Positions 6,001 to 61,366 of a DNA stretch of 64,000 nucleotides are shown here, piece by piece (position 1 is the first letter of the stretch; each line of letters opens with the position of its first letter). Where the stretch lies: assembly GCA_963663375.1 (NCBI GenBank), contig OY760195.1, positions 1,881,613 through 1,945,612 of the forward strand, in the 5' to 3' direction. The translations under genes were made by a program, and so were the position numbers. Origin of the DNA: an uncultured Holophaga sp. GTDB taxonomy: Bacteria > Acidobacteriota > Holophagae > Holophagales > Holophagaceae. A model generated the notes under the pieces. That model did no database searches and was not told where the DNA came from. It worked only from the letters and a program-made list of their open reading frames with translations.

Positions 6001-6231
6001 TATGAAAGGGCGTTCGTTCCGCCTCTTTTGGCCCGTATTCGCGAGGGGTCAAGGCAACTGTGTTTCGCCTCATTCCGCTCAACACTACATGAGGCTACAA
6101 TTGTTGACTATTCCCCCCCAGCCGCAACTCATTTCGCCGCTTGTCTTGCATTGGGTGTACGGCCAGTTGGACGATCTTCTAACGGAGAAAACTTGGCGCA
6201 CTCTAGATTATCCGGATCTGTCGTACACCGT

Positions 6232-7710: not shown

Positions 7711-7764
7711 CTCCAGAGGATTGACCCCAACATTCAGATGGCTGGTATTGAGGCAAAAACTGGA

Positions 7765-7801
7765 GACAAAAAAAAGGCACCCATCGGGTGCCTCTTTCTT
7801 T
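7765..7801. terminator. Bidirectional rho-independent terminator
   Basis: Hairpin aggcaccc-atcg-ggtgcct with an A9 run upstream and a T-rich run downstream. It serves both the + strand lipoprotein gene and the - strand tRNA. Confidence 0.55.
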
Positions 7802-7878
<77 letters not shown>

Positions 7879-7954
7879 TGAATCGTTGAGTCTACGGGAA
7901 TCGGGGGACGAGGTCAAGACTGGAGCGATCAGGGTAGCCCTGTCGGCTCAGATT

Positions 7955-8563
7955 TTACTCGTCCAGATCCAGGGGCAGCCGGGTCACGGACCACATGCGA
8001 CCAAGGGCACTGGCCTCGGGCTTGGGTTTGCGGGGGCCCTTGGGCGTGGGTTCGGGGAGGGGGATCGCGGGAGCTTCCTCCGATGCTTCCGGCTCCAGGG
8101 GCAGGGCGGGCGGGCTTGGCATTGTCGCCACGACTCGAACGGTCTGGATTCTCGCTTTTCTCGGGCGGGTGGGAGGGCGCAGGACTTCCGGCAGCTCCTC
8201 AGTCTCTATGGAGGGCAGACTCCCGGGAGGCACAGAGAGGCGTCCCAGCACCTTCCGCAAGGCCTGCAAGGCGGTCCACAGGCGCGAGGGCGATACGGCT
8301 GTGGGTTCCGTTTCGCTGTGGGCGGCGGAGATGGGCAGTCCCTGGAGGCGCAGGCGGCAATCCGCCACAGTGCAGCCTTCGGCGAGCCACTGGCGGATGC
8401 GCTGCAGGCGGGCGATCTCCTCCTGGTGGTAGTAGCGCAGGTTGCCCTTAGAACGCCGGGGCTGCAGCTCGGGAATGACCTTCTCCCAGTAGCGCAGCTC
8501 CTTGGGAGTGGCGCCAACACGCCGGGCGGCTTCTCCGATCTTGAACCAGACCCGCTCGATCAT
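7955..8563 (-). CDS. MerR-family HTH transcriptional regulator with Pro-rich C-terminal tail
   Basis: The N-terminus (WFKIGEAARRVGATPKELRYWEK) matches the MerR HTH. The C-terminal ~90 aa are Pro/Glu-rich and low-complexity. Confidence 0.6.
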   Translation of the reverse strand: MIERVWFKIGEAARRVGATPKELRYWEKVIPELQPRRSKGNLRYYHQEEIARLQRIRQWLAEGCTVADCRLRLQGLPISAAHSETEPTAVSPSRLWTALQALRKVLGRLSVPPGSLPSIETEELPEVLRPPTRPRKARIQTVRVVATMPSPPALPLEPEASEEAPAIPLPEPTPKGPRKPKPEASALGRMWSVTRLPLDLDE

Positions 8564-18578: not shown

Positions 18579-18681
18579 GAAACCTCCAACAGGGTGCGGA
18601 TTCAGACTAAAGGTTCTATTTTACCGGAGCCAGACTACTGGATCCCATGGAGATTTCTACTCACCCCCCGCACCGACCATG

Positions 18682-18720
18682 AAACAAACTGGGGCCGTTG
18701 TAACGGCCCCAGTTTCTCTT
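18682..18720. terminator. Bidirectional rho-independent terminator
   Basis: aaacaaa-ctggggccg-ttgtaa-cggccccag-tttctctt between convergent genes. Confidence 0.55.
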
Positions 18721-18764
18721 GCACGATAGGTGTATGTCGAAACGACCCGTTTTCTCAGACGGAA

Positions 18765-19877
18765 CTATGGTTTCCCTGCCTCAACAAAGGTCATCTGATC
18801 GAGAAACAGCAGGTTTCCGTCTGGCTTGAACCGCCAGTTGAAATTACGCAAATCATCTGCGCACTCGATCCTGGATTTAACGTTTTGGGGAGTCGCAACC
18901 TCATGAAGGCGGCCATCTCCGAGATAAAAGTGCCACCACTGCACAACCGGGAAGGCTTTGGATGATTCGTCTGCATGCCGGTTGTGAAACCTCAGGAACT
19001 CCGACCACCAGGATTCAGAGGAAGTACCGGCAGAATCCGGGTGCTGGAATCGAGTATCGTCACCGAAGAGGCCCGCCGTTTCCGTGCGGGAGGCGATCAA
19101 GAGATCTCCATCCCGAGTGGGCTGAACCCCCAATAGCACGGGAAGCCCTGCCTTTTTTTCGACCACATCCTCGCTCAACCCGTTGAACAGCCGAACGACA
19201 CGCTTGAGGTTCCCTTTTCCCGAATCGACAACCCAGAAGTAGCCACTAGCCTGGGACGCGGCGACTAGATATCCGCCGCACCTAGTTATGGGATAAAGAC
19301 CTAGATCGAAAAGTCCAGGATATTGATGCTTCCCATCCGGCTTGAAGAAGGGTTTCCCCAGCCCCGCGTCGAAGGAATCCGTCACTTCGAAATCACCCGA
19401 GGAGGATACGCGCCAGATGTAGAAGGGCCTTTGGCCCTTGCCCTTGAGCATGCTGCCCACAGAAAGGTATTTCCCGTTACCAAGCTCGTATAGTTCGAAA
19501 GGAACCGGATGCTGGTCCTGCTCCCTGGCGGTAGGCCGCCATTTGCCCTGGGCCAGTACCCGCCATTTTCCTTCTTCGAACACAAAGATGGCTGTAAAGA
19601 AGAAGAGTCCCTCGGCATCCTGGGCGCGCCTGTGTTCCCGAGCATAGAGACGACCGTTGCAGTAGTCGTAGCAAAGCAGGCTGCCCCCCTGTAGGGGTTT
19701 CGGGTGCGGTACCTTCCAAACTATTTTTCCAGTGGGAGATTCACACTGCGCCGCAATGCCCCGTTCCGGATGGGTGACCACGAGATTAGGACCATCCCAG
19801 ATGCAGGGATTTGGAGCAAGAGCATTCTGCGCAACGAGCGCTCCCGAAAGGATCAAGAACAATCCCAGGGCTTTCAT
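18765..19877 (-). CDS. Hypothetical secreted protein (low-GC)
   Basis: The signal peptide MKALGLFLILSGALVAQNA begins at the internal Met, so the start is 19877. About 52% GC. No known domain. Confidence 0.5.
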   Translation of the reverse strand: MKALGLFLILSGALVAQNALAPNPCIWDGPNLVVTHPERGIAAQCESPTGKIVWKVPHPKPLQGGSLLCYDYCNGRLYAREHRRAQDAEGLFFFTAIFVFEEGKWRVLAQGKWRPTAREQDQHPVPFELYELGNGKYLSVGSMLKGKGQRPFYIWRVSSSGDFEVTDSFDAGLGKPFFKPDGKHQYPGLFDLGLYPITRCGGYLVAASQASGYFWVVDSGKGNLKRVVRLFNGLSEDVVEKKAGLPVLLGVQPTRDGDLLIASRTETAGLFGDDTRFQHPDSAGTSSESWWSEFLRFHNRHADESSKAFPVVQWWHFYLGDGRLHEVATPQNVKSRIECADDLRNFNWRFKPDGNLLFLDQMTFVEAGKP

Positions 19878-19896
19878 ACCGCCTCCCAAAAGAAGG

Positions 19897-20085
19897 CTAA
19901 CAATTTTTACCTACAAATTGTTCAAGCCTTGCGGCTGATATCGTGTGACCTTTCCAGTCGGATCGCGTCACTACGATGTACGTGCCATCACTGCAGGAAT
20001 GCACATAGCAATCCCCCTCTGGATATGCAAAGAGTGAGGTTGTCATTAAGGCTAGGACAAACGCCAGATGAATTGCTTTTTTCAT
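19897..20085 (-). CDS. Small secreted Cys-containing protein (62 aa, low-GC)
   Basis: MKKAIHLAFVLALMTTSLFA signal peptide followed by a 42-aa mature part with 4 Cys. It lies immediately downstream of the poly-C/G tract. Confidence 0.4.
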   Translation of the reverse strand: MKKAIHLAFVLALMTTSLFAYPEGDCYVHSCSDGTYIVVTRSDWKGHTISAARLEQFVGKNC

Positions 20086-35693: not shown

Positions 35694-37346
35694 TCAGTGC
35701 TTCGGTCGCTCCAGGTAGGTCGCCGCGCCCTTCATCTCGGCGGTGGGGCCGTGGGCTGGCCCCTTGGCCTTGCTGCGCCGTGCGCCATGGGCCCACTGGA
35801 CCTTCAGGGCCGTGGCCTCGGGATGGCCCGGGGCGAGCCGGAGCACTTCGGCCAGATCGGCGAGGGCCTCGGCGCGCCGCCCCAGCTTCTCCCGGAGGAG
35901 GGCCTGCTTCAGGAAACCCCAGGTATTGCCGGGTTCCTGGGCCACAATCTCCGCGTATTCGGCCTCGGCCTCGATGAACCGCCCTCCCTCCTCCGCAACC
36001 TCCCCGCACAGAAGATTCGTCACCGTGCAGAAGCCCAGCCAAGCCTTTTGCTCCGCGAATTCCCGAGGCGAGTATGCGGCCTTCCGCTTGATCTGATTTG
36101 CCACGGCGTCCAGGTGGCGCAGGGCCCGCTCCGTGTGGACATCCACCCGGGCGAAGACCTCCGCATCGCCGGTGGCCCGGAAGAAATCCTTCGCGATGCG
36201 CCCCTCTTCCCGATAGCGGTCGAAGAGTCGGGTGCCGGGATAGAGCGCCAACGGGGAGATCTGCACATCGTGAGGGCGGACCTCGCGGATGAAGGCGGCG
36301 CTCTCCTCTACATCCTCCCAGGTCTCGCCGGGAATGCCGGTGATGAGAAAGACGCCGAGGTTGAGCCCTACCTTGCGCACCAGGGACAGCGCGTTGCGCG
36401 CCTGGCGCATGTTGGTGCCCTTGTCCAAAAGCGCCAGCACCCGCTCGCTGGCGTGCTCCACACCGAACTGCATGAACTCGCAGCCCGCCCGTTTCATGGC
36501 CACCAGGCGATCCTCGTCCACCAGATTCACGCGGCTCTGGCAGTTCCAAATGGGATGCAGCCCACTCCCCTGGATCAGCTCCATGAGTTTGAGAATGCGC
36601 CCCCTGTTGGCGGTGAAGGTGTCATCCCGGAAGGAGAAGTAGGTGAGCCCGTGCCGTGCCCGCAGCAGGTTCATCTCCTGAAGCACCGCCTCGGGACTGC
36701 GGAAGCGGATGGAACTGCCCCAGAATTCCGGCGTGTTGCAGAAGTTGCAGGTGGCCGGGCAGCCCCGGCTGGTGCTGAGGTACGCCAGCTGGCCCACGTC
36801 ATCGAGGAAATCAGCCTCGAAGTGCTGGGCGGGGAAACCGATGACATCGAGGTTCTCGAGGGGCGCCTGGCTCAGAGTCTCGCCCTCCCGCAGGATGAGG
36901 CCCGGCGCCCGTCTCCAGAGATCCGAACCCGGTGCCGCAGCCAGTCGTTCCACCACCCCCAGGAGGGGCAACTCGCCCTCGCCCTTCACGATGGCATCCA
37001 GGGCCGGACATTCCTGGAAGACCTCCGTGGCGAGATGGGTGGGATGGGGCCCACCCGCCAGCAGCACCGCGGCGGGATGGGCTTCCCGCGCCCACTGCAG
37101 CAGCTCGAAGCTCCGCTTGCGGTTGAAGGTGAACATGGAGATGCCGATGACCTCGGCTCTCTGCGACTGGAAGTAGGCCAACGCGTCCTTGCGGGACATC
37201 CCGGAGAGGTTGGCCAAGCGGCAGGGGTAACCCTTCTGCTTGAGCGCCGCCTGGAGATACCCCAGCCCGATGGGAAGGAAGCGCATCCACTCGTCGCCGA
37301 AACCGCTGCGGGGGGCGCTGTACACCAACAGAACCGAGGGCTTCAC
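35694..37346 (-). CDS. B12-binding domain radical SAM protein with C-terminal TPR region
   Basis: N-terminal cobalamin-binding domain (Rossmann-like), the radical SAM cluster motif CPATCNFC, and C-terminal TPR-like repeats. GTG start overlapping the stop of the upstream PilZ gene. Confidence 0.8.
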   Translation of the reverse strand: MKPSVLLVYSAPRSGFGDEWMRFLPIGLGYLQAALKQKGYPCRLANLSGMSRKDALAYFQSQRAEVIGISMFTFNRKRSFELLQWAREAHPAAVLLAGGPHPTHLATEVFQECPALDAIVKGEGELPLLGVVERLAAAPGSDLWRRAPGLILREGETLSQAPLENLDVIGFPAQHFEADFLDDVGQLAYLSTSRGCPATCNFCNTPEFWGSSIRFRSPEAVLQEMNLLRARHGLTYFSFRDDTFTANRGRILKLMELIQGSGLHPIWNCQSRVNLVDEDRLVAMKRAGCEFMQFGVEHASERVLALLDKGTNMRQARNALSLVRKVGLNLGVFLITGIPGETWEDVEESAAFIREVRPHDVQISPLALYPGTRLFDRYREEGRIAKDFFRATGDAEVFARVDVHTERALRHLDAVANQIKRKAAYSPREFAEQKAWLGFCTVTNLLCGEVAEEGGRFIEAEAEYAEIVAQEPGNTWGFLKQALLREKLGRRAEALADLAEVLRLAPGHPEATALKVQWAHGARRSKAKGPAHGPTAEMKGAATYLERPKH

Positions 37347-38458
37347 GTGGGCTCCCTGGGCGCCATGACGCCTTCGCCGCCCTCGTAGTGGCGGCGCAGC
37401 ACGCCCTGGAGCAGCCGCTGAAAGAAGGGCCCCGGCTTGGGGCCGATGACTACGGAGGCCGATGCCTTCAGTTCCGTGCCCAGTTCCATGAGCCCCGATG
37501 CCTCCACCCCCGTGCCTACCAGCAGGAAGGGTTGCCGGGGCGGGAGCACCTCCACCAGAGTGCGCAGGCGCTTGCGTTCGTCCAAGCCCAGGCTGGGCAG
37601 GTGGAAGAGGAGGAGCGCGGGATGGGCCATGACCGCCTCCTTCATGGCCGCCATGGTGGGTGGAATGCGGCGCAGGGGCGGGAGGTCCACCAGGTAGTTC
37701 CGCAACCCCTCTTCCATCTCGGCGGAGGTCGATACCAGCACCAGGCCCCCCGCGCCGGTGGTGGGGGCGGGGCTGAGGGGCGTACCCAGGCTTCGCAGGC
37801 GATCACTGTCTTCCTCCCGTCGCTGGAAGACCCACCGGGAGAGGGGCGTGAGCACGGGCTCCGGCAGGATGGGCACGAACTCGAGCCCCAGCGCGCGCCC
37901 CTGGATCCACCGCACCACGGCGGGAGCGTTGATCTTGAGTTCCTCCGCCACGGGAATCGTGACGGTCATGGGATTCCCGATCTCGAAGAGTGCATCCAGT
38001 TTTTCCTGCTGGGAGTAAATGCGCGCCCCCGTGGCGCTGAGACTCGCCAAAAGTCCGGTGCGGATCTCGAAGCGGGGGGTGCTGAAGGTGACCTCAATGC
38101 GCCCGACGCGCTCGGCGCGATAGGCCCCCCGCTGGTCATCCTCCCGAAGCGTCTTGGGCAGTTCCAGCCGCAGGCTGCGGCGCCCCTCCACCATGCCGAA
38201 GCCCAGCAGCCGCGTCTTGCCTTCCAGAAAGCGGGTGGCGTGGGGGAAGCGGAACCGCAGATCGGCGCTGCGCAGGCCGAACATCGCATCCTCGGCCCCC
38301 ATGGTGGCCCGGGCTTGGAGGGCACCTTGCTCCATCTGCAGGAAGTTGGATTCGAAGCGGAGGTAAGGCGTAACAAGGATCATCAGTTCGCGGTTGGCGC
38401 AAGCCTGGGCCAGGATCCCCTGGACCTCCCCCGCCGCACTCACCACGAAATGCCCCAT
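37343..38458 (-). CDS. YcgR-like PilZ-domain protein, paralog 1 (PilZN + PilZ + degenerate REC-like C-terminus)
   Basis: RxxxR (QRGAYRAER) and a degenerate (D/N)xSxxG motif (SLSATGARI). The N-terminus is shared with the two downstream paralogs (AQACxxRELxIL(A/V)TPYLRFES). The C-terminal ~130 aa form a receiver-like fold that lacks the acidic pocket. Confidence 0.6.
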   Translation of the reverse strand: MGHFVVSAAGEVQGILAQACANRELMILVTPYLRFESNFLQMEQGALQARATMGAEDAMFGLRSADLRFRFPHATRFLEGKTRLLGFGMVEGRRSLRLELPKTLREDDQRGAYRAERVGRIEVTFSTPRFEIRTGLLASLSATGARIYSQQEKLDALFEIGNPMTVTIPVAEELKINAPAVVRWIQGRALGLEFVPILPEPVLTPLSRWVFQRREEDSDRLRSLGTPLSPAPTTGAGGLVLVSTSAEMEEGLRNYLVDLPPLRRIPPTMAAMKEAVMAHPALLLFHLPSLGLDERKRLRTLVEVLPPRQPFLLVGTGVEASGLMELGTELKASASVVIGPKPGPFFQRLLQGVLRRHYEGGEGVMAPREPT

Positions 38459-38561
38459 GACCTCCCCGTTTGGCCTGCGCTCAGGCTGGTTCCACCATAG
38501 TTGGTGTAGTTCTTAAACTGTATCCTCATCCCTGCACGATAAGAGAAGGCGGGAGGCTTCG

Positions 38562-39692
38562 GTGACCATCACCATCAAGGACCAGAGTGACATCCGCGAA
38601 CTGCTGGCCCAGGCCTGCACCCGCCGGGAGCTGCTCATCCTGGCCACGCCCTACCTGCGCTTCGAGTCCAGCTTCGTGGCGCTGGAAGAAAACGAACTCC
38701 ACGTGCTGGCCACCATGAGCCGGGACGATGCGGCCTTCGGGCTCAAGACCAGCGACCTCAAGATCCGCTTTCCCCAGGGCCTTGGATTCTTCGAGTCCTC
38801 GGTTCAGATGCTCGGCCTGGGCCTCTACGAAGGGCGGCGCACGGTGCGCCTCTCCATCCCCAGGAGCGTCCAGGAGAATGACCAGCGAGTGGCCTTTCGG
38901 GTGGAGCGCCTGGGCAAGGTGGAGGTGACCTTCAGCACCCCCAGGGCCGATCTCTATACCGCCACTCTGCTGGATGTGAGCACCTCCGGCGCCCGGATTC
39001 ACACCCGTGTGGACCTGCCTGAGGGGGCGATGTACGCCGGGGATCCCATCCGGGTCTCCATTCCCCTCGACCACGGCATTCGCATCGAGGGGGGCGCGCG
39101 GGTGCGGCACATGCGGGGCCGCAGCGTGGGCCTGCAGTACCAGCCGGAGCTGGGCCCCGAGGTCCTGGAACCCCTCTCCCGGTGGGTCTTCCTGCGCCGG
39201 GAGGAGGAGCGGGAACGAATGGCCCGGCGCCTGGAGCAGGCGGCCTGGTCGGAACCCCAGGGCAGTGGCATCGCCGAACTGAGCATCCTCCTGATCAGCG
39301 CCGATCCCGATCTGGAACAGGAACTGAAGGAGGCTCTGGCGGGAGTTCGTCCCCTCACCCGCCTCGCCCCCGCGGCCCAGGCCCTCAAGGACGCCCTGTC
39401 CGCCAAGCCCTCGTTGGCCATCTTCCATGTGGGCGGCGCCGGACTGGACGAGCGGCGGCGCCTCAAGACCCTCCTCGAGATCGCCCAACGCAAGGTCCCC
39501 ACCCTCCTGCTGGGCACCGAGGTGGATGGCGCCACCCTCTTCGAGCTGGCCAGCGAATGGAAGGCCTCCAGCGCCATGAGCTGGAATCACGGGCGCGGCC
39601 CCTTCCTCGAGCGGCTGGTGCGTGGCATGATCCGGCGCCACATGGACTCGGGGGAAGGCCCCATGGCCCCCTTCGAGGCCGGGGAGCCCTGA
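38562..39692 (+). CDS. YcgR-like PilZ-domain protein, paralog 2
   Basis: Canonical c-di-GMP-binding motifs QRVAFRVER (RxxxR) and DVSTSGARI (DxSxxG). The C-terminus is a pseudo-receiver domain. Confidence 0.65.
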   Translation: MTITIKDQSDIRELLAQACTRRELLILATPYLRFESSFVALEENELHVLATMSRDDAAFGLKTSDLKIRFPQGLGFFESSVQMLGLGLYEGRRTVRLSIPRSVQENDQRVAFRVERLGKVEVTFSTPRADLYTATLLDVSTSGARIHTRVDLPEGAMYAGDPIRVSIPLDHGIRIEGGARVRHMRGRSVGLQYQPELGPEVLEPLSRWVFLRREEERERMARRLEQAAWSEPQGSGIAELSILLISADPDLEQELKEALAGVRPLTRLAPAAQALKDALSAKPSLAIFHVGGAGLDERRRLKTLLEIAQRKVPTLLLGTEVDGATLFELASEWKASSAMSWNHGRGPFLERLVRGMIRRHMDSGEGPMAPFEAGEP

Positions 39693-40819
39693 TGAAACTG
39701 CCCTTTCGGGAGTCCTCCAAGGCCCCGGGAGCCCTGGAGGGCGTCCAGCGGGACGAGGTTCTCGCGGAATTATGCACGCGCCACCAGGCCTGCCTGCTGG
39801 CCACCCCCTACCTCAGCTTCGAATCCCGGATGCTGGAAGTGACGCCCAGCGAACTCTGCGTGCGGGCCACCATGAGCCGCGAGGCGGCCAAGCACGCCCT
39901 GGGTCAACAGCCGCTGAAGCTGCGATTTCCCTGGGGCCTCACCTTCTACTCGGGTACGACCAAGGTGCTCGGCTACGAGCAGGGCGAGCAGCGCCGCACC
40001 CTGCGCCTGGCGATTCCACCCTGGCTGGAGCCCGATGAGCAGCGCAAGGCCTTCCGCCTGGAGCGGGTGGGCCGCTGTCACGGCGCCCTGGGAAACCAGG
40101 AGGGAAACCTGCTGCGCATCACCCTGGAAAACATCTCGCAGCATGGCGCGGGGGTCTTCTGCCTGGAACCCATTCCCCCCGAGGGTTTCCAGACTGGGCG
40201 CGTCCTGTCGCTGGCCCTGGGGCTGGACCAGGGGCCCAGCCTGCGCTTCGAGGCGCGGGTCTGCCACGGCCAGGGCCAATACCTCGGCCTCCGGTTCGAT
40301 CCCAGGCCGGGACCGGAAACCGCCGGGGCCCTCCAGGAATGGCTGGACCCGCGCATCGAAGACACTCAGCGCCGGTGGGACGACCGCGCCGAACTCAGGG
40401 CCCATGCCGAACAGGCGGCCAGACCCAAGCTCCCCCCCGCCGGTGTGCTGTTGCTCTCCAGGGATCCGACTCTGACCGCCCAGGTGGCCGAAGCGCTGGA
40501 CAACCTCCAGCCCGTGCGGAGCGCCCCCCCCAGCATGGCTGCCTACAAGGAGACCCTCGAACCGCCGCCCCTGCTGTTGCTTTTAGATATTTCGGGAGCC
40601 GACGGCGAGGAACGCCATCGGCTGCGGGGACTGTTGGAGGGCCAGCCGCCCGGCTGTCCAATCCTGGTGCTCGGTCGCGAAGGCGACCCGGACACCTGGC
40701 GCACCCTGGCCTCGGACCTGAAGGCGCGGCTCTACCTCACCTGGAATCCCACCCAGATGGTGTTTTTCCGCAGGCTGGTGCTGGGCCTGATTCAGCGGCA
40801 CTGGAAACAGGCCGAGTAG
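39692..40819 (+). CDS. YcgR-like PilZ-domain protein, paralog 3
   Basis: Its ATG overlaps the paralog-2 stop (tgATG). RxxxR (QRKAFRLER) and NxSxxG (ENISQHGAGV). The C-terminal receiver-like domain keeps Asp residues at the beta1 and beta3 positions. Confidence 0.65.
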   Translation: MKLPFRESSKAPGALEGVQRDEVLAELCTRHQACLLATPYLSFESRMLEVTPSELCVRATMSREAAKHALGQQPLKLRFPWGLTFYSGTTKVLGYEQGEQRRTLRLAIPPWLEPDEQRKAFRLERVGRCHGALGNQEGNLLRITLENISQHGAGVFCLEPIPPEGFQTGRVLSLALGLDQGPSLRFEARVCHGQGQYLGLRFDPRPGPETAGALQEWLDPRIEDTQRRWDDRAELRAHAEQAARPKLPPAGVLLLSRDPTLTAQVAEALDNLQPVRSAPPSMAAYKETLEPPPLLLLLDISGADGEERHRLRGLLEGQPPGCPILVLGREGDPDTWRTLASDLKARLYLTWNPTQMVFFRRLVLGLIQRHWKQAE

Positions 40820-45968: not shown

Positions 45969-46409
45969 CTAAGGGTCATTCCTCGCAACTCGAGGGTTTG
46001 TAAAATCCTTCAATTCCTCCAGCCGCCGCCGGATCTCGTCCCGGGCCGCCCGAAACCGTTCGCGCATCTGGTCAGGCATGAGGCTCGGATCGTCGCTGGC
46101 GGGATCGGGAATGGGCCAATGGAGGCGCTCCGCCTGGCCCAAGAAGAGCGGACAGACCTCCTCGGCGCACAGGGTGATCACGAGATCCACGGTGGCGGGG
46201 TCGATATCCTGCACAGATTTCGAGGTGTGGGACCTGGCATCGATGTCGAGCTCGGCCAGGACCTCGATGGCATAAGGGTTCACGCGGCTGGGGCGACTGC
46301 CCGCGCTCTGGATGCGGAGGCCGGGAAACATCTGGCGGGCGAGGCCCTCTCCCATCTGGGAGCGGGCGCTGTTGGCGACACAGAGAAACAGGAGGCCGGT
46401 GGGGGTCAT
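45969..46409 (-). CDS. arsC: Arsenate reductase (LMW-PTP family, thioredoxin-coupled ArsC)
   Basis: P-loop [16 protein letters not shown] (CX5R) and a downstream Cys pair typical of Trx-coupled ArsC. The start is at MTPTG. Confidence 0.8.
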
Positions 46410-46846
46410 GGGGATTCCTTGGGATGGGGTGAGGCCGCTCGGTCCTTCCTGGATCTCATGACACAGGCGCACTCGCCGTGAAGCAGCGCCTCCGGGTCGG
46501 TGACGAGAGGCATGTCCGCCTGGTCCCAGGCCAGCATGCCGCCATTCAGGCAGGCGAGCCTTTCGAAGCCGAGCGCCTTGAGGGCCGCAGCCGCGCCCTT
46601 GGTGTAGACACCAGAGGAATCGGCCAAGACCAGCAGGCGGTCCTGGGGAAGTTCCAGCGCGCGCTCCGCGAGGACGGCATGGGGAAGGTGGATCACTTCA
46701 GGAACCGAGAAGGCCTTCATCTCGACCAGATCATCACTGCGAAGATCTACCAGCACCGCCCCCTGCTGGAGGACGGCCAGGGCCTCCTGGGGCGCCAGGA
46801 AAAGGAGCCCCTGGATGAGCATTCCCGGCGCTCGATTTTCGGTCAT
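46406..46846 (-). CDS. Rhodanese-domain protein in ars operon
   Basis: Single rhodanese fold (LVDLRSDDL...CLNGGMLAW). It is translationally coupled to arsC (ATGA overlap). A catalytic-loop Cys is present, but the loop is atypical. Confidence 0.55.
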
Positions 46847-46874
46847 CGAAACCTCCTTCCCAGGAGTCGCGGAC

Positions 46875-47951
<1,077 letters not shown>

Positions 47952-47964
47952 GTGGGCTCCGAAT

Positions 47965-48798
47965 TCACGCGGGCTTGCGGGCGGAAATGATCAGACTGGC
48001 GATGAAATGGGAGGGCTGGGTTCCTTCCGGAAGATGATCCCGCACCAGGATGGCCATGGAATCCCAGGCGGGGAGCATGGCCTCCACGGCGCCCTCCTTG
48101 GGCGTCAGGACCAGATCCACCAGCCCCGCCTCGGCGACCATCTGCTTGAGCTCCTCCTGGAGTGCTGCTCCCGCGATGCAGCCCACCAGAGCCTCAACGC
48201 TCGCGCGGAGGGCCTCCGGCAGCGGCTGCAGCAGAACCATGTCGGAGATCGACACGCGTCCGCCAGGTTTCAGCACCCGGGCGATCTCCTTCCAGACCCT
48301 GCCCTGGTCGGGGCTGAGGTTCAGGACACAGTTGGAGATCACCACATCCACCGAGGCGTCCGGCAGGGGCAGCGCCTCGATCTGGCCGTGATGGAACGCC
48401 ACATTGTCCAGGCCCGTCCGCAAACGGAAGGCCTCGGCATTCCGCTGGGCCTTGGCGATCATTTCGAGGGTCATGTCCACGCCGATGGCCCGGCCCCCGA
48501 AGCCCACTCGCTGGGCCGCCAGGAACACATCCAACCCGGCGCCACTGCCCAGATCCAGAACGGTTTCTCCGGGCTTCAATTCCGCCAGGGCCGTGGGATT
48601 GCCGCAGGAGAGGCCGAGATTCGCGCCCTCGGGCAGGGTGGCCAGTTCGGCATCGGAATACCCAACACCCAGGGCGACCTCCGCGGCGCGCCCGCCGCAG
48701 CAGGATGACTGAGGCCCACAGCAACCGCCCCCGGCCACCGCGATGCGGCCGTAGGCCTGGCGGACAGATTCATGGATGGGATGGCTGGAGGTGTCCAT
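47965..48798 (-). CDS. arsM: Arsenite S-adenosylmethionine methyltransferase
   Basis: ArsM N-terminus with arsenite-binding Cys pairs ([11 protein letters not shown]), the SAM motif VLDLGSGAG, and a downstream conserved Cys (LVGCIAGA). The start is at MDTSSHP. Confidence 0.8.
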
Positions 48799-48809
48799 GG
48801 GGAATCCTT

Positions 48810-49130
48810 TCAGAAGCTCTTGCGGGTACAGCAACCGCTTCCACCCTTGCAGCAGTCCTCCCAGAGGTACTCGGTGAGGCTTTGCAGGATGGCGAAATCC
48901 GCCCGGTAGCGGAGGAAGGTGCCTTCGCGCTCCACCTTGACCAGGCTCGCCTCGGCCAGGGCCGCAAGGTGATGACTCAGGGTGGAGGCGGGAATGCCAA
49001 GGCGATCCTGGAGTTCCCCCGCGGGCGTGCCCCCCTCGGGCCCCTGGACCACGAAACGAAGAATGGAGAGCCGCACCGGATGGCCCAGGGCCTTCAGGCG
49101 ACCGGCATTCAGCTCCAGGCGTTTGACCAC
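48810..49130 (-). CDS. arsR: ArsR/SmtB-family arsenic-responsive repressor
   Basis: Winged HTH (HPVRLSILRFV...STLSHHLAAL) and a C-terminal Cys cluster (CCKGGSGCC), a candidate As(III) sensing site. GTG start with a gggagg RBS. Confidence 0.8.
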   Translation of the reverse strand: MVKRLELNAGRLKALGHPVRLSILRFVVQGPEGGTPAGELQDRLGIPASTLSHHLAALAEASLVKVEREGTFLRYRADFAILQSLTEYLWEDCCKGGSGCCTRKSF

Positions 49131-56112: not shown

Positions 56113-56293
56113 CTCGGAATGTTGGGAACGAATGACGGGAGGAACTGATGAACCACAGAGGTCACAGAGAAAAGAAAGAGGACAAAGAGAGTAAGAGGGT
56201 CTCTGTTTCTGCTTTTCTCTGTGCTCTCCATTTCTCTGCGCTCTCTGCGGTTCAGTTTTTTGTTGGTTTCGGGCCCAAACGAAAAATGAGCCA

Positions 56294-57619
56294 TCAGGTC
56301 ACGATCGCCTCCGCCACCACCTCGGCGACAGTCTTGATCTGGACCTTCAGCTTGTATTCCTTGTTCAGCTCTGAGAGCTGATCCACGCAGTTGTGGCAGG
56401 GGGTGACCACCACTTCGGCGGCGGTGGCCTTGATCTGGGCTGCCTTGATGCCCCCCGCCTCCAAGCGTCGGGATTTGTAGCGGGCCATGGCCAGCTGCCC
56501 CCCGCCGCCACCGCAGCAGAAGTTGTGCTCGCGGTTGGGCGTCATCTCCACGAAGTTCGCCGCGCTGGCCCGCAGCACTCGCCGCTGGGCCTCGCTGATT
56601 CCGCCGTGGCGCACCAGGTTGCAGGGGTCGTGAAGCGTCACAGGCGCGGGGTTTTTCGTGGGGTCGACTTTTATCCGCCCATCCCGGAGGTACTCGTCCA
56701 TCAGCTCCAGGATGCTCATGACCTTGAACGGATATTCCCGCTGCAGCCACTCCGGGCCTTCCCAGCGGGCTGACGCGAAGCCGTGGCCGCACTCGCCGAT
56801 GACCAGGGTCTCGCAGCCCAGGCGCGCCATGGCATCCACTAGGTTCTGGGTGAGGACGCCGGCCTCCTCGTCCTTGCAGTTGAAGAGGCCGTAGTTGGTG
56901 AGATCCCAGCCGGGATCGGAGGTGAGGGTCCAGTCCTCCTTGGCGGCCCAGAAGACCTTGGCGCTGGCCTGCAGGCTCAAAGGGAAGAACTTGGGTTCCC
57001 GGGGATTCACGGTGAAGAGGATCTTGGCGCCCACCTTGTCCAAGGGCAGCCGCGCCTCGGGATCGCCGGTCTCCATCTGGAGTTCCTCCTCGATCCACTG
57101 CACGGTCTCCACCCAGTCGGTCTTGGCGATGCCCATGTTGTTGCCGTGCTGGAGGGCCATGTCCACCGTGGCCTGGAGATCCGGCGGCGTGAGGCCCATG
57201 GCGCCGAGGGCCGCGCGGGCGGCCCGAAACAACCGAGGCAGGGCGATGCCCACGGTGCAGTTGAGGGAGCAACGCCCACACAGGGAGCAGCGCCCGAACA
57301 CCGCGTCCACCCAGGCCCGGGCCATGTCCTTGTCCAGGGCCTTGGCCCCCACTAATCCTGGGACCAGCTTGCCCATGGTGGTGAACTCGCGCTTGAACAC
57401 CGCGGCGATCTTCTCCAGCTTGGCGGCGGGAACGTTCTCCAGCTCCGGCTGGGCGCGGTAGTAGTGGCAGCTCTCCGCGCAGAGGCCGCAGTGGACACAG
57501 GTATTCAGATAGGACGCATCCGCGGCCCCCAGCTTGGCCCTGAAGACTTCCAGACCGCGCTTGAAGTCCGCTTCCGTGAGCGCCTCCAGGCGGGATTCCA
57601 GTTCATCGTGCTCCGACAT
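56294..57619 (-). CDS. (Fe-S)-binding oxidoreductase with two 4Fe-4S ferredoxin motifs and two CCG domains (HdrD/DsrK/GlpC-like)
   Basis: CVHCGLCAESCHYY and CSLCGRCSLNC ferredoxin clusters. Two Cys-rich CCG domains (HDPCNLVRHGG..., CCGGGGGQLA...TPCHNC). Confidence 0.75.
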   Translation of the reverse strand: MSEHDELESRLEALTEADFKRGLEVFRAKLGAADASYLNTCVHCGLCAESCHYYRAQPELENVPAAKLEKIAAVFKREFTTMGKLVPGLVGAKALDKDMARAWVDAVFGRCSLCGRCSLNCTVGIALPRLFRAARAALGAMGLTPPDLQATVDMALQHGNNMGIAKTDWVETVQWIEEELQMETGDPEARLPLDKVGAKILFTVNPREPKFFPLSLQASAKVFWAAKEDWTLTSDPGWDLTNYGLFNCKDEEAGVLTQNLVDAMARLGCETLVIGECGHGFASARWEGPEWLQREYPFKVMSILELMDEYLRDGRIKVDPTKNPAPVTLHDPCNLVRHGGISEAQRRVLRASAANFVEMTPNREHNFCCGGGGGQLAMARYKSRRLEAGGIKAAQIKATAAEVVVTPCHNCVDQLSELNKEYKLKVQIKTVAEVVAEAIVT

Positions 57620-57628
57620 GGCGGCTCC

Positions 57629-58243
57629 TCAGGCTCGGCCCAGACCCGGCGGGAACACGCCTCGACGCCCGAAGAACGCGCCGGAGTGGTACCGGGTGGA
57701 GAAGAAGAAGACGCAGTGCCGAATCTTTCCCAGGGGCACATAGATCAGGAGCGCGGCGGTTTCCAGCATCCAGGCAGAGACGAGGCCCGGAAAGAAGACC
57801 GCGAGTCCCGCCAGGGCGGCGAAGGCCGTGGCGAGGCCGTTGGAGAGGTAGTCATCGACACAGGAAAGCCCGCGCAGATGAGCTTTGAGGATCCGCTTGA
57901 ACAGCAGCGAGAGGCCACCCAGTGCGCCTCCCAGCGCCAGGACTGCCAGGACCCGGGAGTCGCCCCAGCCCGCCAGGCGCAGCGCCAGCAAGGCAAAGGC
58001 GGCGAAAACCCCCATGTGGTAGAGCATCCCGGCGAGATAGGAGACGGGATTTATCCTCACGCTCTCCTTGGCCTGGGGGGCCATGCCCTTGGTGAAGGCG
58101 TAGCGCACGCCCGCCTGGGCATCCCCGCTGGGGGTCGCGAAGAGGCGTCGCGTGCCGAAGGCCCGGGCGTGGCCAAAGGCCACGACCAGCGCCACCGCGC
58201 ACCAGGCCGCCGCCAGAAGCACCACCACATCAAGGGTGGCCAT
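57629..58243 (-). CDS. NarI-like di-heme cytochrome b membrane subunit (HdrE/DsrM-like)
   Basis: Five TM helices with conserved His residues in TM2 and TM5 (YHMGVF...RYHSGAFF). It lies 9 nt downstream of the CCG Fe-S gene. Confidence 0.55.
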   Translation of the reverse strand: MATLDVVVLLAAAWCAVALVVAFGHARAFGTRRLFATPSGDAQAGVRYAFTKGMAPQAKESVRINPVSYLAGMLYHMGVFAAFALLALRLAGWGDSRVLAVLALGGALGGLSLLFKRILKAHLRGLSCVDDYLSNGLATAFAALAGLAVFFPGLVSAWMLETAALLIYVPLGKIRHCVFFFSTRYHSGAFFGRRGVFPPGLGRA

Positions 58244-58245
58244 GC

Positions 58246-58566
58246 CTACACGCAGCCGTCGGGCTTGGGCAGGCCCGCCAGCTTGCAGGCCCCCTTGGCG
58301 GGTCCGCTGGGGAAGAGATCATAGATGCGCTTGAGGGGAACGCCCGTAGTCTTGCAGATGGAGCGCACCATGGGCGCCGCCTGGTGTTCCTGGAAGTGCT
58401 GACGAATGAAGCGGATCACCGCCCAGTGGTCCTCGCTCAACTCCGCCAGGTTCTCTTCCTTCTGGGCCAGCACCAGGGCGAGCTCCTCGCTCCAGGCACC
58501 CGGGTCCACCAGGAAGCCTTCCTCGTTCAGTTCAATCTGGGTCCCATTGAATTCAAGGGCAGCCAT
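58246..58566 (-). CDS. DsrC/TusE-family sulfur-relay protein
   Basis: The C-terminal arm carries the two conserved Cys (...GACKLAGLPKPDGCV-COOH). The DsrE/DsrC fold helix (WAVIRFIRQHFQEH) is present. The start is at MAALEF. Confidence 0.75.
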   Translation of the reverse strand: MAALEFNGTQIELNEEGFLVDPGAWSEELALVLAQKEENLAELSEDHWAVIRFIRQHFQEHQAAPMVRSICKTTGVPLKRIYDLFPSGPAKGACKLAGLPKPDGCV

Positions 58567-58800
58567 GGCGCCTCCGGCAGAATGGAGAGGGAAGTCCCAC
58601 AGGGGATCATTCAGATTGCATATGCAGAATAATATTCCGTTATGCAGCACCGAAGAGCATAGTCCACTCGGCTTTGTTTCGCAATATCTTCTTATTTCTG
58701 ACGGCTAACGCAGGCCCCAGGGGCCCTTGGGGAGAATCCGCCACCCCGGAATATGTATGTTCACCCCATTCGGGTTTCCCGGGGAGCCGGGAATGAACGT

Positions 58801-59424
58801 TCAGCCTTCCCTTTCGCCCACCATCAGGAATACCGGGAATTCCCGGATTCCTGCGGGAGTCTGCCGCAGCACCACACAGGGCCTGGTGAACCGGATATAC
58901 CCGAAGCCAGCCTCCTGCATCTTCCGGGTCAGGGCTTCGCGATCAAAACCCCTGTGGCCGTCAAAATCCGGCCCGTGGAAGGAGCCGTCCTCGAGGTCCA
59001 GGTCCGCAATGCAGAGTGCGCCCCCGTCCCGCAGCAAGGCATGGAACCGCGCCAGGATCGCGGCGATATCCGGGATGTGATGCAAGGTCATCAGCGTGCA
59101 GATCAGATCGAAGCGGAGCTCCGGGAGCGGCCCCACGCTCAGATCCAAGGCCAGCGAGGTCACGTTGCGAGCGCCGCAGGCAGCAATTTTTTCTTCGAGT
59201 ACCTGCAGCATGCCCCGGGAGGTGTCCGCCAGGGTGAGGTGCGCCACATGGGGCTGCAGCACGAAGCCCAGCAGACCCGTGCCGCATCCATATTCGAGGA
59301 CTTCCCGGTCGGCCAGGGAGCCCACCGCACCTCGGATGGCCTCGGCCACGCGCTGGGCCCGGTCCACCTTGGCGGGATCCGCATCCCAGGTGCGCGCTTT
59401 CTCATCGAACTCATTCATGGTCAT
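58801..59424 (-). CDS. Class I SAM-dependent methyltransferase
   Basis: Motif I VLEYGCGTGLLG and post-I acidic LADTS. The start is the ATG at MTMNEF, which has a gagagg RBS. Confidence 0.6.
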   Translation of the reverse strand: MTMNEFDEKARTWDADPAKVDRAQRVAEAIRGAVGSLADREVLEYGCGTGLLGFVLQPHVAHLTLADTSRGMLQVLEEKIAACGARNVTSLALDLSVGPLPELRFDLICTLMTLHHIPDIAAILARFHALLRDGGALCIADLDLEDGSFHGPDFDGHRGFDREALTRKMQEAGFGYIRFTRPCVVLRQTPAGIREFPVFLMVGEREG

Positions 59425-59450
59425 GCCTCTCTCTGATTCTTCCAGCGGGT

Positions 59451-60542
59451 TCAAAAGGCAGCCGTCAGGCTGAGGCCCAGCCCCATGTCGGCCGTGTTCT
59501 CGTTGTGGGTGATGTTATTGAGGTAGCGGAAGGTCAGGGTGGCGTTCTTCCAGACGGGCCAGTGGAAACCCAGATCGTGCTGGAGGCTGCCCCGATCCAG
59601 TTTCTGGTAGAGCTGGGGCTGCAGGTACCCGCTCTGCGCATAGAGCTGAAGGAAGGGCCGGAAGCGCGGCCATCGGCGGTATTCCCAGGTTCCGTGGGCG
59701 CCCCAACCGTTGCGCATGCCCCCGAATGCGAGCTGATTGTAGGGCGTGCTTCCCGGGGGTCGCCCCACGTAGGCGCCCCCGAAATAGAACACGTGCCGAG
59801 GCGCAGGCTGCCAGCGCCCCGTCAACCCCAGGGAATGATCCCAACCGGAGCGATAAATATCGTAGGTGGTCGTCGTCGGCGGTTTGAGAGTGAACTGCGC
59901 CGAAAGGGACCAGGTGGGACTCTCCAAGAATCGATGCACCACGCCGAGGAGCGAATCCTGGGTCTTGCCGCGAATGGTCTGGTCGCTGTAGAAATCCAGG
60001 TTGCCCCGGGTCATCACCACCAGCGTCAGACGATTCTTGGCGATCCGATCCCGTCCAAACTGCTCGAATCCAAGGGAATGGAAACCCTCGATGACGTTGT
60101 CCAGGTAGCCACCTCCGTGGCTCTGGAAGGGAAGCTCCGCCCAGAGATCCGTATTCGCGGTCAGCCCGTATCGCACCCGCAGCGTGGTGCGGCTGATCTC
60201 CTCGTCGAAGAAGAAGATCACGGGCACCGCGGCGTAATCCGCGGCATGGGCCAGCACGAACTCCCGAGTGAGGGTCACTCGCCCCTGGGCATCCCGGGGC
60301 GCTTGGGTCTTGAATACATCCGAGAATTCAAAGGTATTGGCCCGAATGGTATCCAAGGCCACCCGCCACCGGCCTTGGCCCACCGGAGTCGGGTCCACCG
60401 GCTGATAGGCCAGGGTGGGCAGGTAGAGGGGAAACATCTCCCGCGTGGGAATGGGCCCCATCTCCATGGGCTCCTGGGCCACCAACCGTGGCGCCAGCAG
60501 CGCCGCGAGCACCCCGCGCCCAACCCTTTGTGTCCACTCCAT
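59451..60542 (-). CDS. Outer-membrane beta-barrel protein (hypothetical), signal peptide, C-terminal Phe
   Basis: Signal sequence GVLAALLAPRLVAQ. Alternating amphipathic beta-strands rich in aromatics, and a terminal ...LSLTAAF typical of OMPs. Confidence 0.5.
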   Translation of the reverse strand: MEWTQRVGRGVLAALLAPRLVAQEPMEMGPIPTREMFPLYLPTLAYQPVDPTPVGQGRWRVALDTIRANTFEFSDVFKTQAPRDAQGRVTLTREFVLAHAADYAAVPVIFFFDEEISRTTLRVRYGLTANTDLWAELPFQSHGGGYLDNVIEGFHSLGFEQFGRDRIAKNRLTLVVMTRGNLDFYSDQTIRGKTQDSLLGVVHRFLESPTWSLSAQFTLKPPTTTTYDIYRSGWDHSLGLTGRWQPAPRHVFYFGGAYVGRPPGSTPYNQLAFGGMRNGWGAHGTWEYRRWPRFRPFLQLYAQSGYLQPQLYQKLDRGSLQHDLGFHWPVWKNATLTFRYLNNITHNENTADMGLGLSLTAAF

Positions 60543-60566
60543 GGTGCTTCGCCGTTCTCCGAAAGG

Positions 60567-60926
60567 TCAGAGCACCCGCTGCCAGGGGCCTGCGTTGTAC
60601 ACCTCGACATACCCAGCCTGCTTCAAGAACCGCTGGGCGTAGGCGCTGCGACTTCCAGACGCGCAGCAGAGAATGATGGGTTTGGCCTTGGTCAATTCCC
60701 CCATCCGCTGGGGCAGCTGGTCCAAGGGGATGTTCAGGCTGCCAGGGGCTGAAGCCTGAGCGAATTCACCCGAGGTTCGCACATCCACGATTAGGGCCCC
60801 CTTGGCCTTGAGTTCGTTCATTTCATCCACGCGAATGCCTCCCCTCACCAGGAGTAGGATGCGCCGGAGCACGAAGAGTGCCGCGAAGGCGACAACAACA
60901 TAGAGGATGAGACGGAAGGGATTCAT
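60567..60926 (-). CDS. Membrane-anchored single-domain rhodanese (sulfurtransferase)
   Basis: N-terminal TM helix followed by a rhodanese fold with active-site loop CCASGSRS. The start is at MNPFRL. Confidence 0.7.
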   Translation of the reverse strand: MNPFRLILYVVVAFAALFVLRRILLLVRGGIRVDEMNELKAKGALIVDVRTSGEFAQASAPGSLNIPLDQLPQRMGELTKAKPIILCCASGSRSAYAQRFLKQAGYVEVYNAGPWQRVL

Positions 60927-60934
60927 CTGCAGGC

Positions 60935-61267
60935 TCAGGTCAGCGCTTGATAGGAGGCCTTGGCCCGCTCGCTGACATGGCCGCACACCAGTTCACAGAG
61001 ATCCGCCACCAGGGGCAGGACGGGCCGGAAGAACACCGTGTTCCCCTCGGGACTTCGCGTGACGAGCCCCACCCGCACCAGGCAGGCCAGGTGCTTGCTC
61101 GCGTTGGCCTGGGAGAGGCCCGCTACCTCGGCAACGCCCCCCTGACTCAGGGGCTCCTTGGACTCCAGCAGCGCCCGCAGGATCTTCAACCGCGAGGCAT
61201 CCCCCATGGCGTCGAAGAGACAACTCACTTCATCGATCATCGCGTCGCTGGCCAGGAATGGTTTCAT
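60935..61267 (-). CDS. ArsR/SmtB-family transcriptional regulator (possible persulfide/metal sensor)
   Basis: wHTH (ASRLKILRALL...QANASKHLACLVRVGLV) with Cys residues near the N-terminus (SCLF) and the C-terminus (CELVCGH). It is the first gene of the minus-strand sulfur cluster. Confidence 0.75.
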   Translation of the reverse strand: MKPFLASDAMIDEVSCLFDAMGDASRLKILRALLESKEPLSQGGVAEVAGLSQANASKHLACLVRVGLVTRSPEGNTVFFRPVLPLVADLCELVCGHVSERAKASYQALT

Positions 61268-61366
61268 TTCTACTCCACAACCAAACGGTAATATTCCAAG
61301 CCGGTATTGTCAATGCCCAAGCTGTGACCAAGGGGCCTTTCGTTAAACTCCTCCCCAGGAGTACCC

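Follow-up and report, generated by a model that had tools for sequence, protein, structure and literature searches.

What does a dsrC gene do beside the genes of a DsrMK-like membrane complex, in a stretch of DNA that has no dsrAB? This question is raised by a 64-kb stretch of the genome of an uncultured Holophaga sp. (hereafter the window, meaning the whole stretch that was analyzed), whose nearest named relatives are Holophaga metagenome-assembled genomes, Thermoanaerobaculaceae and Mesoterricola silvestris. An earlier interpretation made from the letters alone (the sequence-only reading) had singled out seven co-directional minus-strand genes at 56294-61267, encoding an ArsR-family regulator, a rhodanese, an outer-membrane barrel, a methyltransferase, DsrC, a cytochrome b and an Fe-S protein. 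All seven open reading frames (ORFs) are present and their family assignments hold in Pfam and NCBIfam profile scans of the predicted proteins (the first 27 kb of the window were annotated by Pfam scan). The absence of dsrAB, dsrEFH and sox, likewise pointed out in the sequence-only reading, holds for the called genes of the 64 kb and for its large ORFs, none of which is an sqr either. We find that the conserved unit at this locus is not the run of seven genes but a set of four, namely dsrC, a small membrane protein, a DsrK/TmcB-type Fe-S protein and a cysteine desulfurase. With a probability of roughly 0.45, we propose that the desulfurase loads DsrC with cysteine sulfur and that the membrane complex reduces the loaded DsrC by menaquinol, releasing sulfide.

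A pattern search built on an alignment of the membrane protein, made in one genome per GTDB species, yielded 216 relatives, and the best 80 loci were analyzed by searching them with the window proteins using phmmer and tblastn; the counts given here refer to evaluable loci only. The 80 loci represent at least six phyla and span Holophagae (including the cultured Geothrix limicola), Thermoanaerobaculia, Aminicenantes, Eisenbacteria, Ignavibacteria, Zixibacteria, Fermentibacteria and Fischerbacteria. dsrC lies directly upstream of the membrane gene in 73/75 loci, the CCG Fe-S gene lies directly downstream of it in 73/73, and a cysteine desulfurase gene adjoins this core in 60/64. The desulfurase is co-directional with the core in Holophagae, Thermoanaerobaculia and Eisenbacteria, convergent to it in Aminicenantes, Ignavibacteria and Zixibacteria, and placed upstream in the Fermentibacteria and Fischerbacteria loci. 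The remaining genes of the seven are rare by comparison: arsR was found in 4, the rhodanese in 5 and DUF3187 in 5 of 58 related loci, and the methyltransferase in only two of them, the source genome and a near-identical relative. An all-against-all clustering of the neighboring ORFs of the 80 loci yielded no other gene conserved across phyla. Since neither these neighbor searches nor the clustering added a further cross-phylum gene, the conserved unit comprises four genes, and the four genes from arsR to the methyltransferase represent additions peculiar to one Holophagaceae clade and stand outside the mechanism. Beyond the core, no gene is kept in more than 24 of the 80 loci, and the recurrent neighbors are not DsrJOP, TmcA/D or HmcA-D; dsrAB was found neither within 10 kb in any of the 80 loci nor in the window.

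Because the adjacency of the core genes is conserved across phyla, their association is more than chance, which cannot be said of the seven-gene order, limited as it is to a few close relatives. The unit defined in the sequence-only reading was therefore right in its dsrC, membrane protein and Fe-S trio and in the lack of dsrAB nearby, and wrong in leaving the desulfurase outside; similarly, where that reading had taken the rhodanese as the sulfur donor to DsrC, the conserved donor partner is the desulfurase (60/64 against 5/58). Divergence co-varies among the four core proteins with Spearman coefficients of 0.66-0.88, which agrees with co-inheritance but to which we give little weight because any vertically inherited genes would be expected to behave in this way. 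We are highly confident that the four core genes belong to a single module for redox and sulfur-transfer reactions. Downstream of the desulfurase, about 10 loci have a cysteine-synthase-like gene, and 6 loci contain a CoA-disulfide-reductase/rhodanese fusion. In some Holophagae and Thermoanaerobaculia, the module and these two genes form a six-gene run (L018, 11971-16113; also L010, L013, L014, L015 and L025). These variable neighbors, together with the rhodanese and a PLP-fold (pyridoxal 5'-phosphate) regulator described below, fit a theme of cysteine and sulfane sulfur.

The first protein of the core ends in ACKLAGLPKPDGCV, a Cys-X10-Cys-Val arm with C94 as CysB and the penultimate C105 as CysA. 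Both cysteines of the diagnostic C-terminal arm are hence present, including the penultimate one on which the sequence-only reading had made its assignment depend. The protein scores 108.2 bits against TIGR03342 (cutoff 53.5), and a C-terminus of the form ACK[LVI]AGLPKPDGCV is kept in 67/70 family loci. Its closest solved structures are sulfate-reducer DsrC proteins (2xsj_C, 7e-30; 2v4j_C, 6e-28), and it can be aligned end to end with DsrC from D. vulgaris and Desulfomicrobium norvegicum; bit scores range from 106.6 to 95.9 against sulfate-reducer DsrC, compared with 89.5 against the oxidative-type DsrC of A. vinosum. We also considered an identity as TusE and rejected it, as the TusE equivalog NF008562 gives 79.1 bits (cutoff 191), the solved TusE 7syb_A matches at only 1.7e-8, and CysB is retained. 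The protein is accordingly classed here as a genuine two-cysteine DsrC of the respiratory type. Two-cysteine DsrC has been reported to be almost confined to organisms with DsrAB, the second cysteine being almost always lost, with few exceptions, in organisms without DsrAB (Stockdreher et al., PMC3397948).

The CCG Fe-S protein is closest to TmcB (310 bits, 2e-92; cutoff 735), HmcF (299 bits, 6e-89; cutoff 750) and DsrK (221 bits, 2e-65; cutoff 400). It carries two CX2CX2CX3C motifs (C41/44/47/51 and C111/114/117/121), a single complete CXnCCGXnCX2C motif (C333, C368, C369, C408 and C411) and a lone cysteine, C277, in the sequence IGECGHG, which also contains H279. Across 72 family members, neither H279 nor any of the 14 motif cysteines varies. 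A single CCG motif with a (T/G)ECGH cysteine is the signature of DsrK, HmcF and TmcB, whereas HdrD and HdrB have two CCG motifs (Barbosa et al., PMC10861901). The protein had been described as double-CCG and HdrD-like in the sequence-only reading; it has one complete motif, the first being reduced to C277 in GECGH. The grouping question that the same reading had posed is answered in favor of DsrK and against GlpC/LutA. As every cutoff is missed, neither this protein nor the membrane protein beside it can be counted as a member of the DsrK, TmcB, HmcF, TmcC or HmcE equivalog families, and by its motifs and scores the Fe-S protein is best placed as a separate subfamily of the DsrK/TmcB/HmcF superfamily.

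The 204-residue membrane protein has no Pfam match, the nitrate reductase gamma family included, and only weak matches to TmcC (6e-6, 25.9 bits; cutoff 240) and HmcE (2e-5, 24.4 bits; cutoff 275); a PDB sequence search with its profile gave no matches. A NarI-like transmembrane fold is nevertheless present, as the sequence-only reading had proposed. Among 127 diverse representatives only two histidines are conserved, H76 (99%) and H176 (96%), and both correspond to proximal-heme ligands of E. coli NarI, the segment MLYH76MG to NLFH56IG and PLGKIRH176 to PFSRLIH205. The distal-heme ligands H66 and H187 of NarI are replaced by L86 and W158. The four-histidine ligation expected of the di-heme cytochrome that had been suggested is therefore absent. 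Because the only two histidines kept both align with the proximal-heme ligands, the protein is probably a quinone-interacting anchor with one heme b, like mycobacterial EtfD, with H76 and H176 as candidate ligands. EtfD, as its structure shows, has CCG domains, five helices and one heme b, with menaquinone bound 4-5 Å away from this heme (PMC13083937); the histidines of DsrM are reported to be highly conserved (PMC10504309). The strongly conserved loops of the membrane protein all face the cytoplasm. Its family comprises 482 clusters (50% identity) at E <= 0.001 among 1.84 billion representatives, and one member, P0367 (670 aa), is a natural single chain that joins the membrane protein to the CCG Fe-S protein and matches mycobacterial EtfD in architecture.

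The desulfurase-like gene that the sequence-only reading had placed just downstream encodes a class V cysteine desulfurase that exceeds the TIGR01977 cutoff. None of 59 members deviates at the PLP lysine K218, part of an HK motif, or at the catalytic C357, which lies in a SufS-like GLHC loop. SufS-class desulfurases normally work with a dedicated sulfur acceptor. Two further cysteines, C59 and C182, are also invariant in all 59 module-linked copies. A selenocysteine lyase was considered and set aside, with SclA at 290 bits (cutoff 525) and no selD nearby.

Spacing at the locus is tight within two blocks. The gaps inside the accessory block are 8, 24 and 32 nt, and those inside the core are 2 nt (dsrC to membrane gene) and 9 nt (membrane gene to CCG gene). 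The earlier description of all seven genes as tightly spaced holds to this extent and fails at the spacer of 234 nt between the methyltransferase gene and dsrC, which is AT-rich and contains a conserved box; a further gap of 187 nt separates the CCG gene from the desulfurase gene, where most related loci have about 20 nt. The 187-nt spacer contains a long hairpin with purine-rich and pyrimidine-rich arms, which occurs once in the window and has a predicted RNA fold of -61.3 kcal/mol (z = -4.3; 0/200 shuffles as stable). It could be an inserted element, a transcript-stabilizing structure or an attenuator. An Rfam scan of the whole window, in which riboswitches were sought upstream of dsrC and the desulfurase gene, returned only a tRNA, and a consensus scan of 54.5-61.8 kb found no sigma-70-like promoters and terminator-like sites at chance level.

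From the gene content, the motifs, the fold and the conserved adjacency, a reaction sequence can be proposed. The PLP-dependent desulfurase would convert L-cysteine to L-alanine and hold the sulfur as a persulfide on C357. The sulfane sulfur would then pass to the penultimate C105 of DsrC, in the Holophagaceae clade perhaps by way of the membrane-anchored rhodanese, and C94 of DsrC would resolve the persulfide to give sulfide and a DsrC disulfide, or else a trisulfide would form. DsrC would finally be re-reduced by electrons passing from menaquinol at the cytoplasmic face through heme b and two [4Fe-4S] clusters to a noncubane CCG cluster with Cys277. The net reaction would be cysteine + menaquinol to alanine + H2S + menaquinone, and the module would therefore act as a quinol-linked sink for cysteine-derived sulfane sulfur. 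It would be equivalent to the last step of sulfite respiration, fed by a desulfurase in place of DsrAB. As the distal heme is gone and quinol would be oxidized at the cytoplasmic face, this oxidation is unlikely to be electrogenic in itself, and whatever energy is gained would be due to dehydrogenases upstream of it.

The individual steps have precedents in other systems. IscS and cysteine persulfurate A. vinosum DsrC in vitro in a manner dependent on the penultimate cysteine (PMC3397948), DsrMKJOP/DsrK reduces DsrC-trisulfide with menadiol and releases sulfide (PMC10861901), EtfD is a structurally solved CCG-type electron wire to menaquinone (PMC13083937), and desulfurases are known to cooperate with rhodaneses (PMC8931425). 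That the DsrC cysteine pair is coupled to the quinone pool, as already envisaged in the sequence-only reading, is the natural reading of a DsrC conserved together with a DsrMK-like pair. Our confidence in the reductive direction and in the electron-sink role is moderate.

Several observations weigh against the proposed route. All of the transfers, the physiological role and the direction in which electrons flow are inferred; the last of these is not fixed by the sequence, and it is not obviously favorable for menaquinol to reduce a persulfide or disulfide. The number of hemes is deduced from fold and conserved histidines and not from chemistry. In 88% of the wider family there is a third histidine, at position 65, where the source and its close relatives have Asn; located at the cytoplasmic start of helix 2, this histidine might belong to a quinone site or to the docking of the Fe-S subunit. 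The convergent orientation of the desulfurase gene in Aminicenantes, Ignavibacteria and Zixibacteria means that it does not share a transcript with the other three in those lineages, and at the present locus it stands behind the hairpin spacer. DsrC is absent from 2/75 loci and the desulfurase from 4/64, and three of the DsrC proteins are without CysB. Finally, the absence of dsrAB is known at the level of the loci, that is, for the 64-kb window and for 10 kb around each of the 80 relatives.

The clade-specific genes upstream of the core bear on how the locus might be regulated. The ArsR protein had been likened to SqrR and BigR on account of its N- and C-terminal cysteines, and the whole system had been called persulfide-inducible. 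The BigR equivalog gives 18 bits (cutoff 155), and the N-terminal cysteine of the closest solved relatives, HlyU proteins of the HlyU/BigR group, aligns with R31. C62, C91 and C95 are conserved and C16 is not (Gly in L007), a geometry that does not provide the alpha2/alpha5 cysteine pair. As the protein fails the tests for SqrR/BigR, we find no support for induction by persulfide. The rhodanese has a single N-terminal hydrophobic transmembrane helix and the active-site loop C87-C88-ASGSR (CCASGSRS), just as described earlier, and reaches neither the PspE nor the GlpE equivalog. The DUF3187 protein, with its signal peptide and C-terminal Phe, is a probable outer-membrane barrel. A functional link between it and the module was rejected, since homologues in Geothrix fuzhouensis, G. 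limicola and Mesoterricola sediminis occur in unrelated contexts. For the methyltransferase, the best NCBIfam match is CpaM, with 49 bits (cutoff 180). The suggestion that barrel and methyltransferase export or methylate a sulfur species gives way to their description as clade-specific additions. A separate ars operon is located about 6 kb beyond the desulfurase gene (45969-49130, minus strand), in the order ArsR, ArsM-like methyltransferase (277 aa), ACR3/SBF permease, rhodanese (146 aa) and low-molecular-weight phosphatase-type ArsC. An origin of the module-linked ArsR, methyltransferase and rhodanese as recent paralogues of this operon was dismissed, as identities are only 28-31% over partial alignments.

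Two kinds of sequence element accompany these genes. The GGAATATTACC element in the arsR promoter region is kept upstream of arsR in L002, L006 and L007. The pattern GGAATATTAYY has just two matches in the window, one in the arsR promoter region and one upstream of dsrC, against about 0.33 expected by chance; one regulator for both sites is possible. The conserved box GGAATATTATTCTGCATATGCAAT in the dsrC spacer contains the palindromes GAATATTATTC and TGCATATGCA, and is nearly identical in L001, L002, L003, L005, L006 and L007 while its flanks differ; it probably serves the dsrC unit as promoter or operator. Most of the acidobacterial relatives (24 loci) have, in place of arsR, a MocR-type regulator (GntR helix-turn-helix plus aminotransferase fold) that is transcribed divergently from dsrC. 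It is EhuR-like (404 bits; cutoff 480), and its start codon lies within the palindromic box ATTGTCATGCACACAAT (L060, about 9570-9590), which occurs at the equivalent position in L008-L031, L038, L045, L070 and L079. Cysteine or a related amino compound is a natural guess for its effector. The coordinates of all features of the locus are collected in the table.

Table. Genes and sequence elements of the locus in window coordinates, with profile matches or position.
Feature	Coordinates	Strand	Match or position
Cysteine desulfurase family protein, class V, 403 aa	54895..56106	-	TIGR01977 395.6 bits (cutoff 377); Aminotran_5 8e-84
Hairpin, purine-rich and pyrimidine-rich arms, ~110 nt	56144..56257	-	in CCG gene/desulfurase spacer
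CCG Fe-S protein, cytoplasmic, DsrK/TmcB/HmcF type, 441 aa	56294..57619	-	
Five-helix membrane protein, NarI/EtfD-like fold, 204 aa	57629..58243	-	weak TmcC/HmcE matches
DsrC, 106 aa	58246..58566	-	PF04358 1e-35, 122.5 bits (cutoff 24.9)
Conserved box GGAATATTATTCTGCATATGCAAT	58614..58638	-	about 50-70 nt upstream of dsrC start codon
Class I S-adenosylmethionine-dependent methyltransferase, 205 aa	58801..59418	-	Methyltransf_23 5e-17
DUF3187 protein, 363 aa	59451..60542	-	PF11383 2e-22
Rhodanese, single-domain, 119 aa	60567..60926	-	PF00581 6e-16, 59.1 bits (cutoff 22.2)
ArsR/SmtB-family regulator, 110 aa	60935..61267	-	NF033788 61.6 bits (cutoff 55)
GGAATATTACC element, arsR promoter region	61287..61297	-	downstream of TTGACA hexamer

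Other explanations of the locus were weighed against the proposed route. In the form given by the sequence-only reading, all seven genes would constitute a self-contained operon with a persulfide-induced ArsR, a rhodanese passing sulfur to DsrC and on to a DsrMK/quinone complex, and a barrel and methyltransferase handling the export or methylation of a sulfur species. The genes are indeed real and co-directional, the rhodanese-DUF3187-dsrC order is found again in L002, L003, L006 and L007, a GGAATATTA element is common to the arsR and dsrC upstream regions, and desulfurase-rhodanese cooperation has a precedent (PMC8931425). We nonetheless regard this operon as unlikely, given that, of 58 loci, only 4-5 have each of arsR, the rhodanese and DUF3187 and only two have the methyltransferase, that L003 and L005 have the dsrC box without an adjacent arsR, that DUF3187 homologues elsewhere are unlinked to sulfur genes, that the ArsR protein neither fits the BigR model nor has the SqrR/BigR cysteine positions, and that the operon omits the desulfurase, the one conserved partner. 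The direction of electron flow could also be reversed, with the CCG complex oxidizing persulfurated or reduced DsrC to the trisulfide or disulfide and delivering electrons to menaquinone, in the service of detoxification, storage or signaling. DsrMK-type complexes have been proposed to oxidize persulfurated DsrC in sulfur oxidizers (PMC6018796), and the related EtfD passes electrons towards menaquinone. No DsrAB, sHdr, Sox, SQR or PDO by which the sulfur could be processed past the trisulfide is present in the window or conserved in the loci; in addition, the slightly higher scores of the module DsrC against sulfate-reducer DsrC than against that of A. vinosum point away from it. We assign the oxidative direction a low probability.

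Alternatively, dsrC and the complex might be spare DsrC/DsrMK paralogues serving a canonical DsrAB pathway encoded elsewhere in the genome, with the desulfurase as an unrelated neighbor. Copies of the dsrM2K2 type are common in sulfate reducers (PMC6018796), some Acidobacteriota and Zixibacteria carry dsrAB, and the near-confinement of two-cysteine DsrC to DsrAB organisms would be satisfied (PMC3397948). The conserved adjacency of the desulfurase across phyla speaks against this explanation, as do the lack of dsrAB from the 80 loci and the window, subunits that both fall well below the DsrK cutoff, and a membrane protein without DsrM-type di-heme ligation; the text of a 950-genome dsrAB survey also makes no mention of Holophagae, Aminicenantes, Ignavibacteria or Eisenbacteria. 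In our view, it is very unlikely. Equally, the desulfurase and a TusE-like carrier might form a biosynthetic relay for tRNA thiolation or for Fe-S or cofactor synthesis, the membrane complex providing two electrons for sulfide release. This draws on the E. coli IscS-TusA-TusBCD-TusE pathway, which pairs a desulfurase with a DsrC-family protein (PMC3397948), and on a TIGR01977 clade to which no function is assigned, but it is hard to reconcile with a DsrC that misses the TusE equivalog (79 versus 191 bits) and keeps the CysB almost always replaced in the absence of DsrAB (PMC3397948). Among the genes conserved around the core in the 80 loci there is no tusBCD, mnmA or Fe-S scaffold gene, and a membrane quinone-linked reductase is foreign to known thiolation pathways, which together make a biosynthetic role highly improbable. 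The delivery of cysteine sulfur to DsrC followed by reduction with menaquinol remains the reading that we prefer.

The remainder of the window consists of signaling genes, the ars operon, PilZ paralogues and housekeeping genes. Three PilZ-domain paralogues of ~370 aa lie side by side at 37343-40819, two on one strand and one on the other, beside a B12-binding radical SAM gene. A DDE_3 transposase is encoded at 5260-6000, followed by a tRNA gene (7805-7878, minus strand) in a region with a G+C content of 0.56 (6001-8000), and a second stretch of low G+C (0.57) is found at 18001-20000; the regions 5260-8000 and 18001-20000 may be acquired DNA.

dsrC and dsrMK-like genes commonly serve as markers of dissimilatory sulfite or sulfur metabolism. 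Conserved as it is in lineages not known to have DsrAB, the module would change how such genes are interpreted in metagenomes. If its carrier lineages are without DsrAB, they would represent a large further exception to the rule that links two-cysteine DsrC with DsrAB (PMC3397948). The module is also a candidate pathway through which anaerobes that degrade proteins and amino acids (Geothrix, Holophaga, Aminicenantes, Ignavibacteria and Zixibacteria) make sulfide from cysteine while re-oxidizing the quinone pool. It is tempting to speculate further that DsrC serves as a "bacterial heterodisulfide" outside sulfite respiration and that DsrAB-less bacteria of six or more phyla carry out "cysteine respiration", in which a dedicated desulfurase would charge DsrC and a mono-heme TmcBC-like complex would reduce it with menaquinol, making cysteine-derived sulfane sulfur a respiratory electron acceptor; we hold this wider view to be tentative and rather doubtful. 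If true, it would add an unrecognized source of sulfide in anoxic soils, sediments and sludge. Irrespective of this, the module could serve mechanistic studies as a naturally minimal DsrMK/HdrDE architecture with apparently one heme, and since cultured carriers exist (Geothrix limicola and Mesoterricola silvestris), each step is directly testable.

In the literature, no description of this gene combination was found, although an earlier DsrC review (2014) or comparative genomics study (2011) may mention it. Among the known systems, the CoA-disulfide reductase-rhodanese fusions are NADH-dependent persulfide or polysulfide reductases. They are soluble and likewise reduce sulfane sulfur to sulfide, and a homologue follows the module in six loci; in contrast to the module, they are NAD(P)H-dependent flavoproteins that are not quinone-linked and involve no DsrC. 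The IscS-TusA-TusBCD-TusE relay of E. coli 2-thiouridine synthesis resembles the proposed route in passing desulfurase sulfur to the penultimate cysteine of a DsrC-family protein, whereas the module has a two-cysteine DsrC and a membrane redox complex and has no TusA, TusBCD or MnmA.

By its proposed function the module parallels the terminal DsrC/DsrMK step, and in its build it resembles TmcBC/HmcEF and EtfD/HdrDE. On the side of the membrane complex, the TmcBC and HmcEF pairs of Desulfovibrio are the best-scoring families for both module subunits and share the single-CCG, GECGH type. The module scores far below their cutoffs (735, 750, 240 and 275 bits), has neither the periplasmic multiheme cytochrome c (TmcA/HmcA) nor other Tmc or Hmc subunits, and occurs in lineages not known as sulfate reducers. 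HdrDE of methanogens, which reduces CoM-S-S-CoB, differs in having two CCG motifs and two hemes. EtfD (PDB 9ojn) and HdrDE both have a five-helix NarI-like domain combined with Fe-S and CCG domains as an electron wire to a quinone site beside the heme, and EtfD has the single heme b proposed here; unlike the module, EtfD is one fused chain with two CCG domains and a linear [3Fe-4S] cluster, and receives its electrons from ETF and not from a thiol/disulfide couple. DsrC/DsrMK(JOP) acts as a menaquinol:DsrC-trisulfide reductase at the end of sulfite and sulfate respiration. The module locus departs from it by having no DsrAB, DsrJOP, DsrD, DsrN or DsrT, by keeping the proximal-heme histidines only, by its DsrK score (221 versus 400 bits) and by its conserved desulfurase neighbor. 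What the two systems share is a two-cysteine DsrC with a flexible arm, an Fe-S protein with two [4Fe-4S] motifs, a single CCG motif and a (T/G)ECGH cysteine, and a partner of the NarI fold, and the module points to an undescribed route by which cysteine sulfur is converted to sulfide with respiratory electrons.

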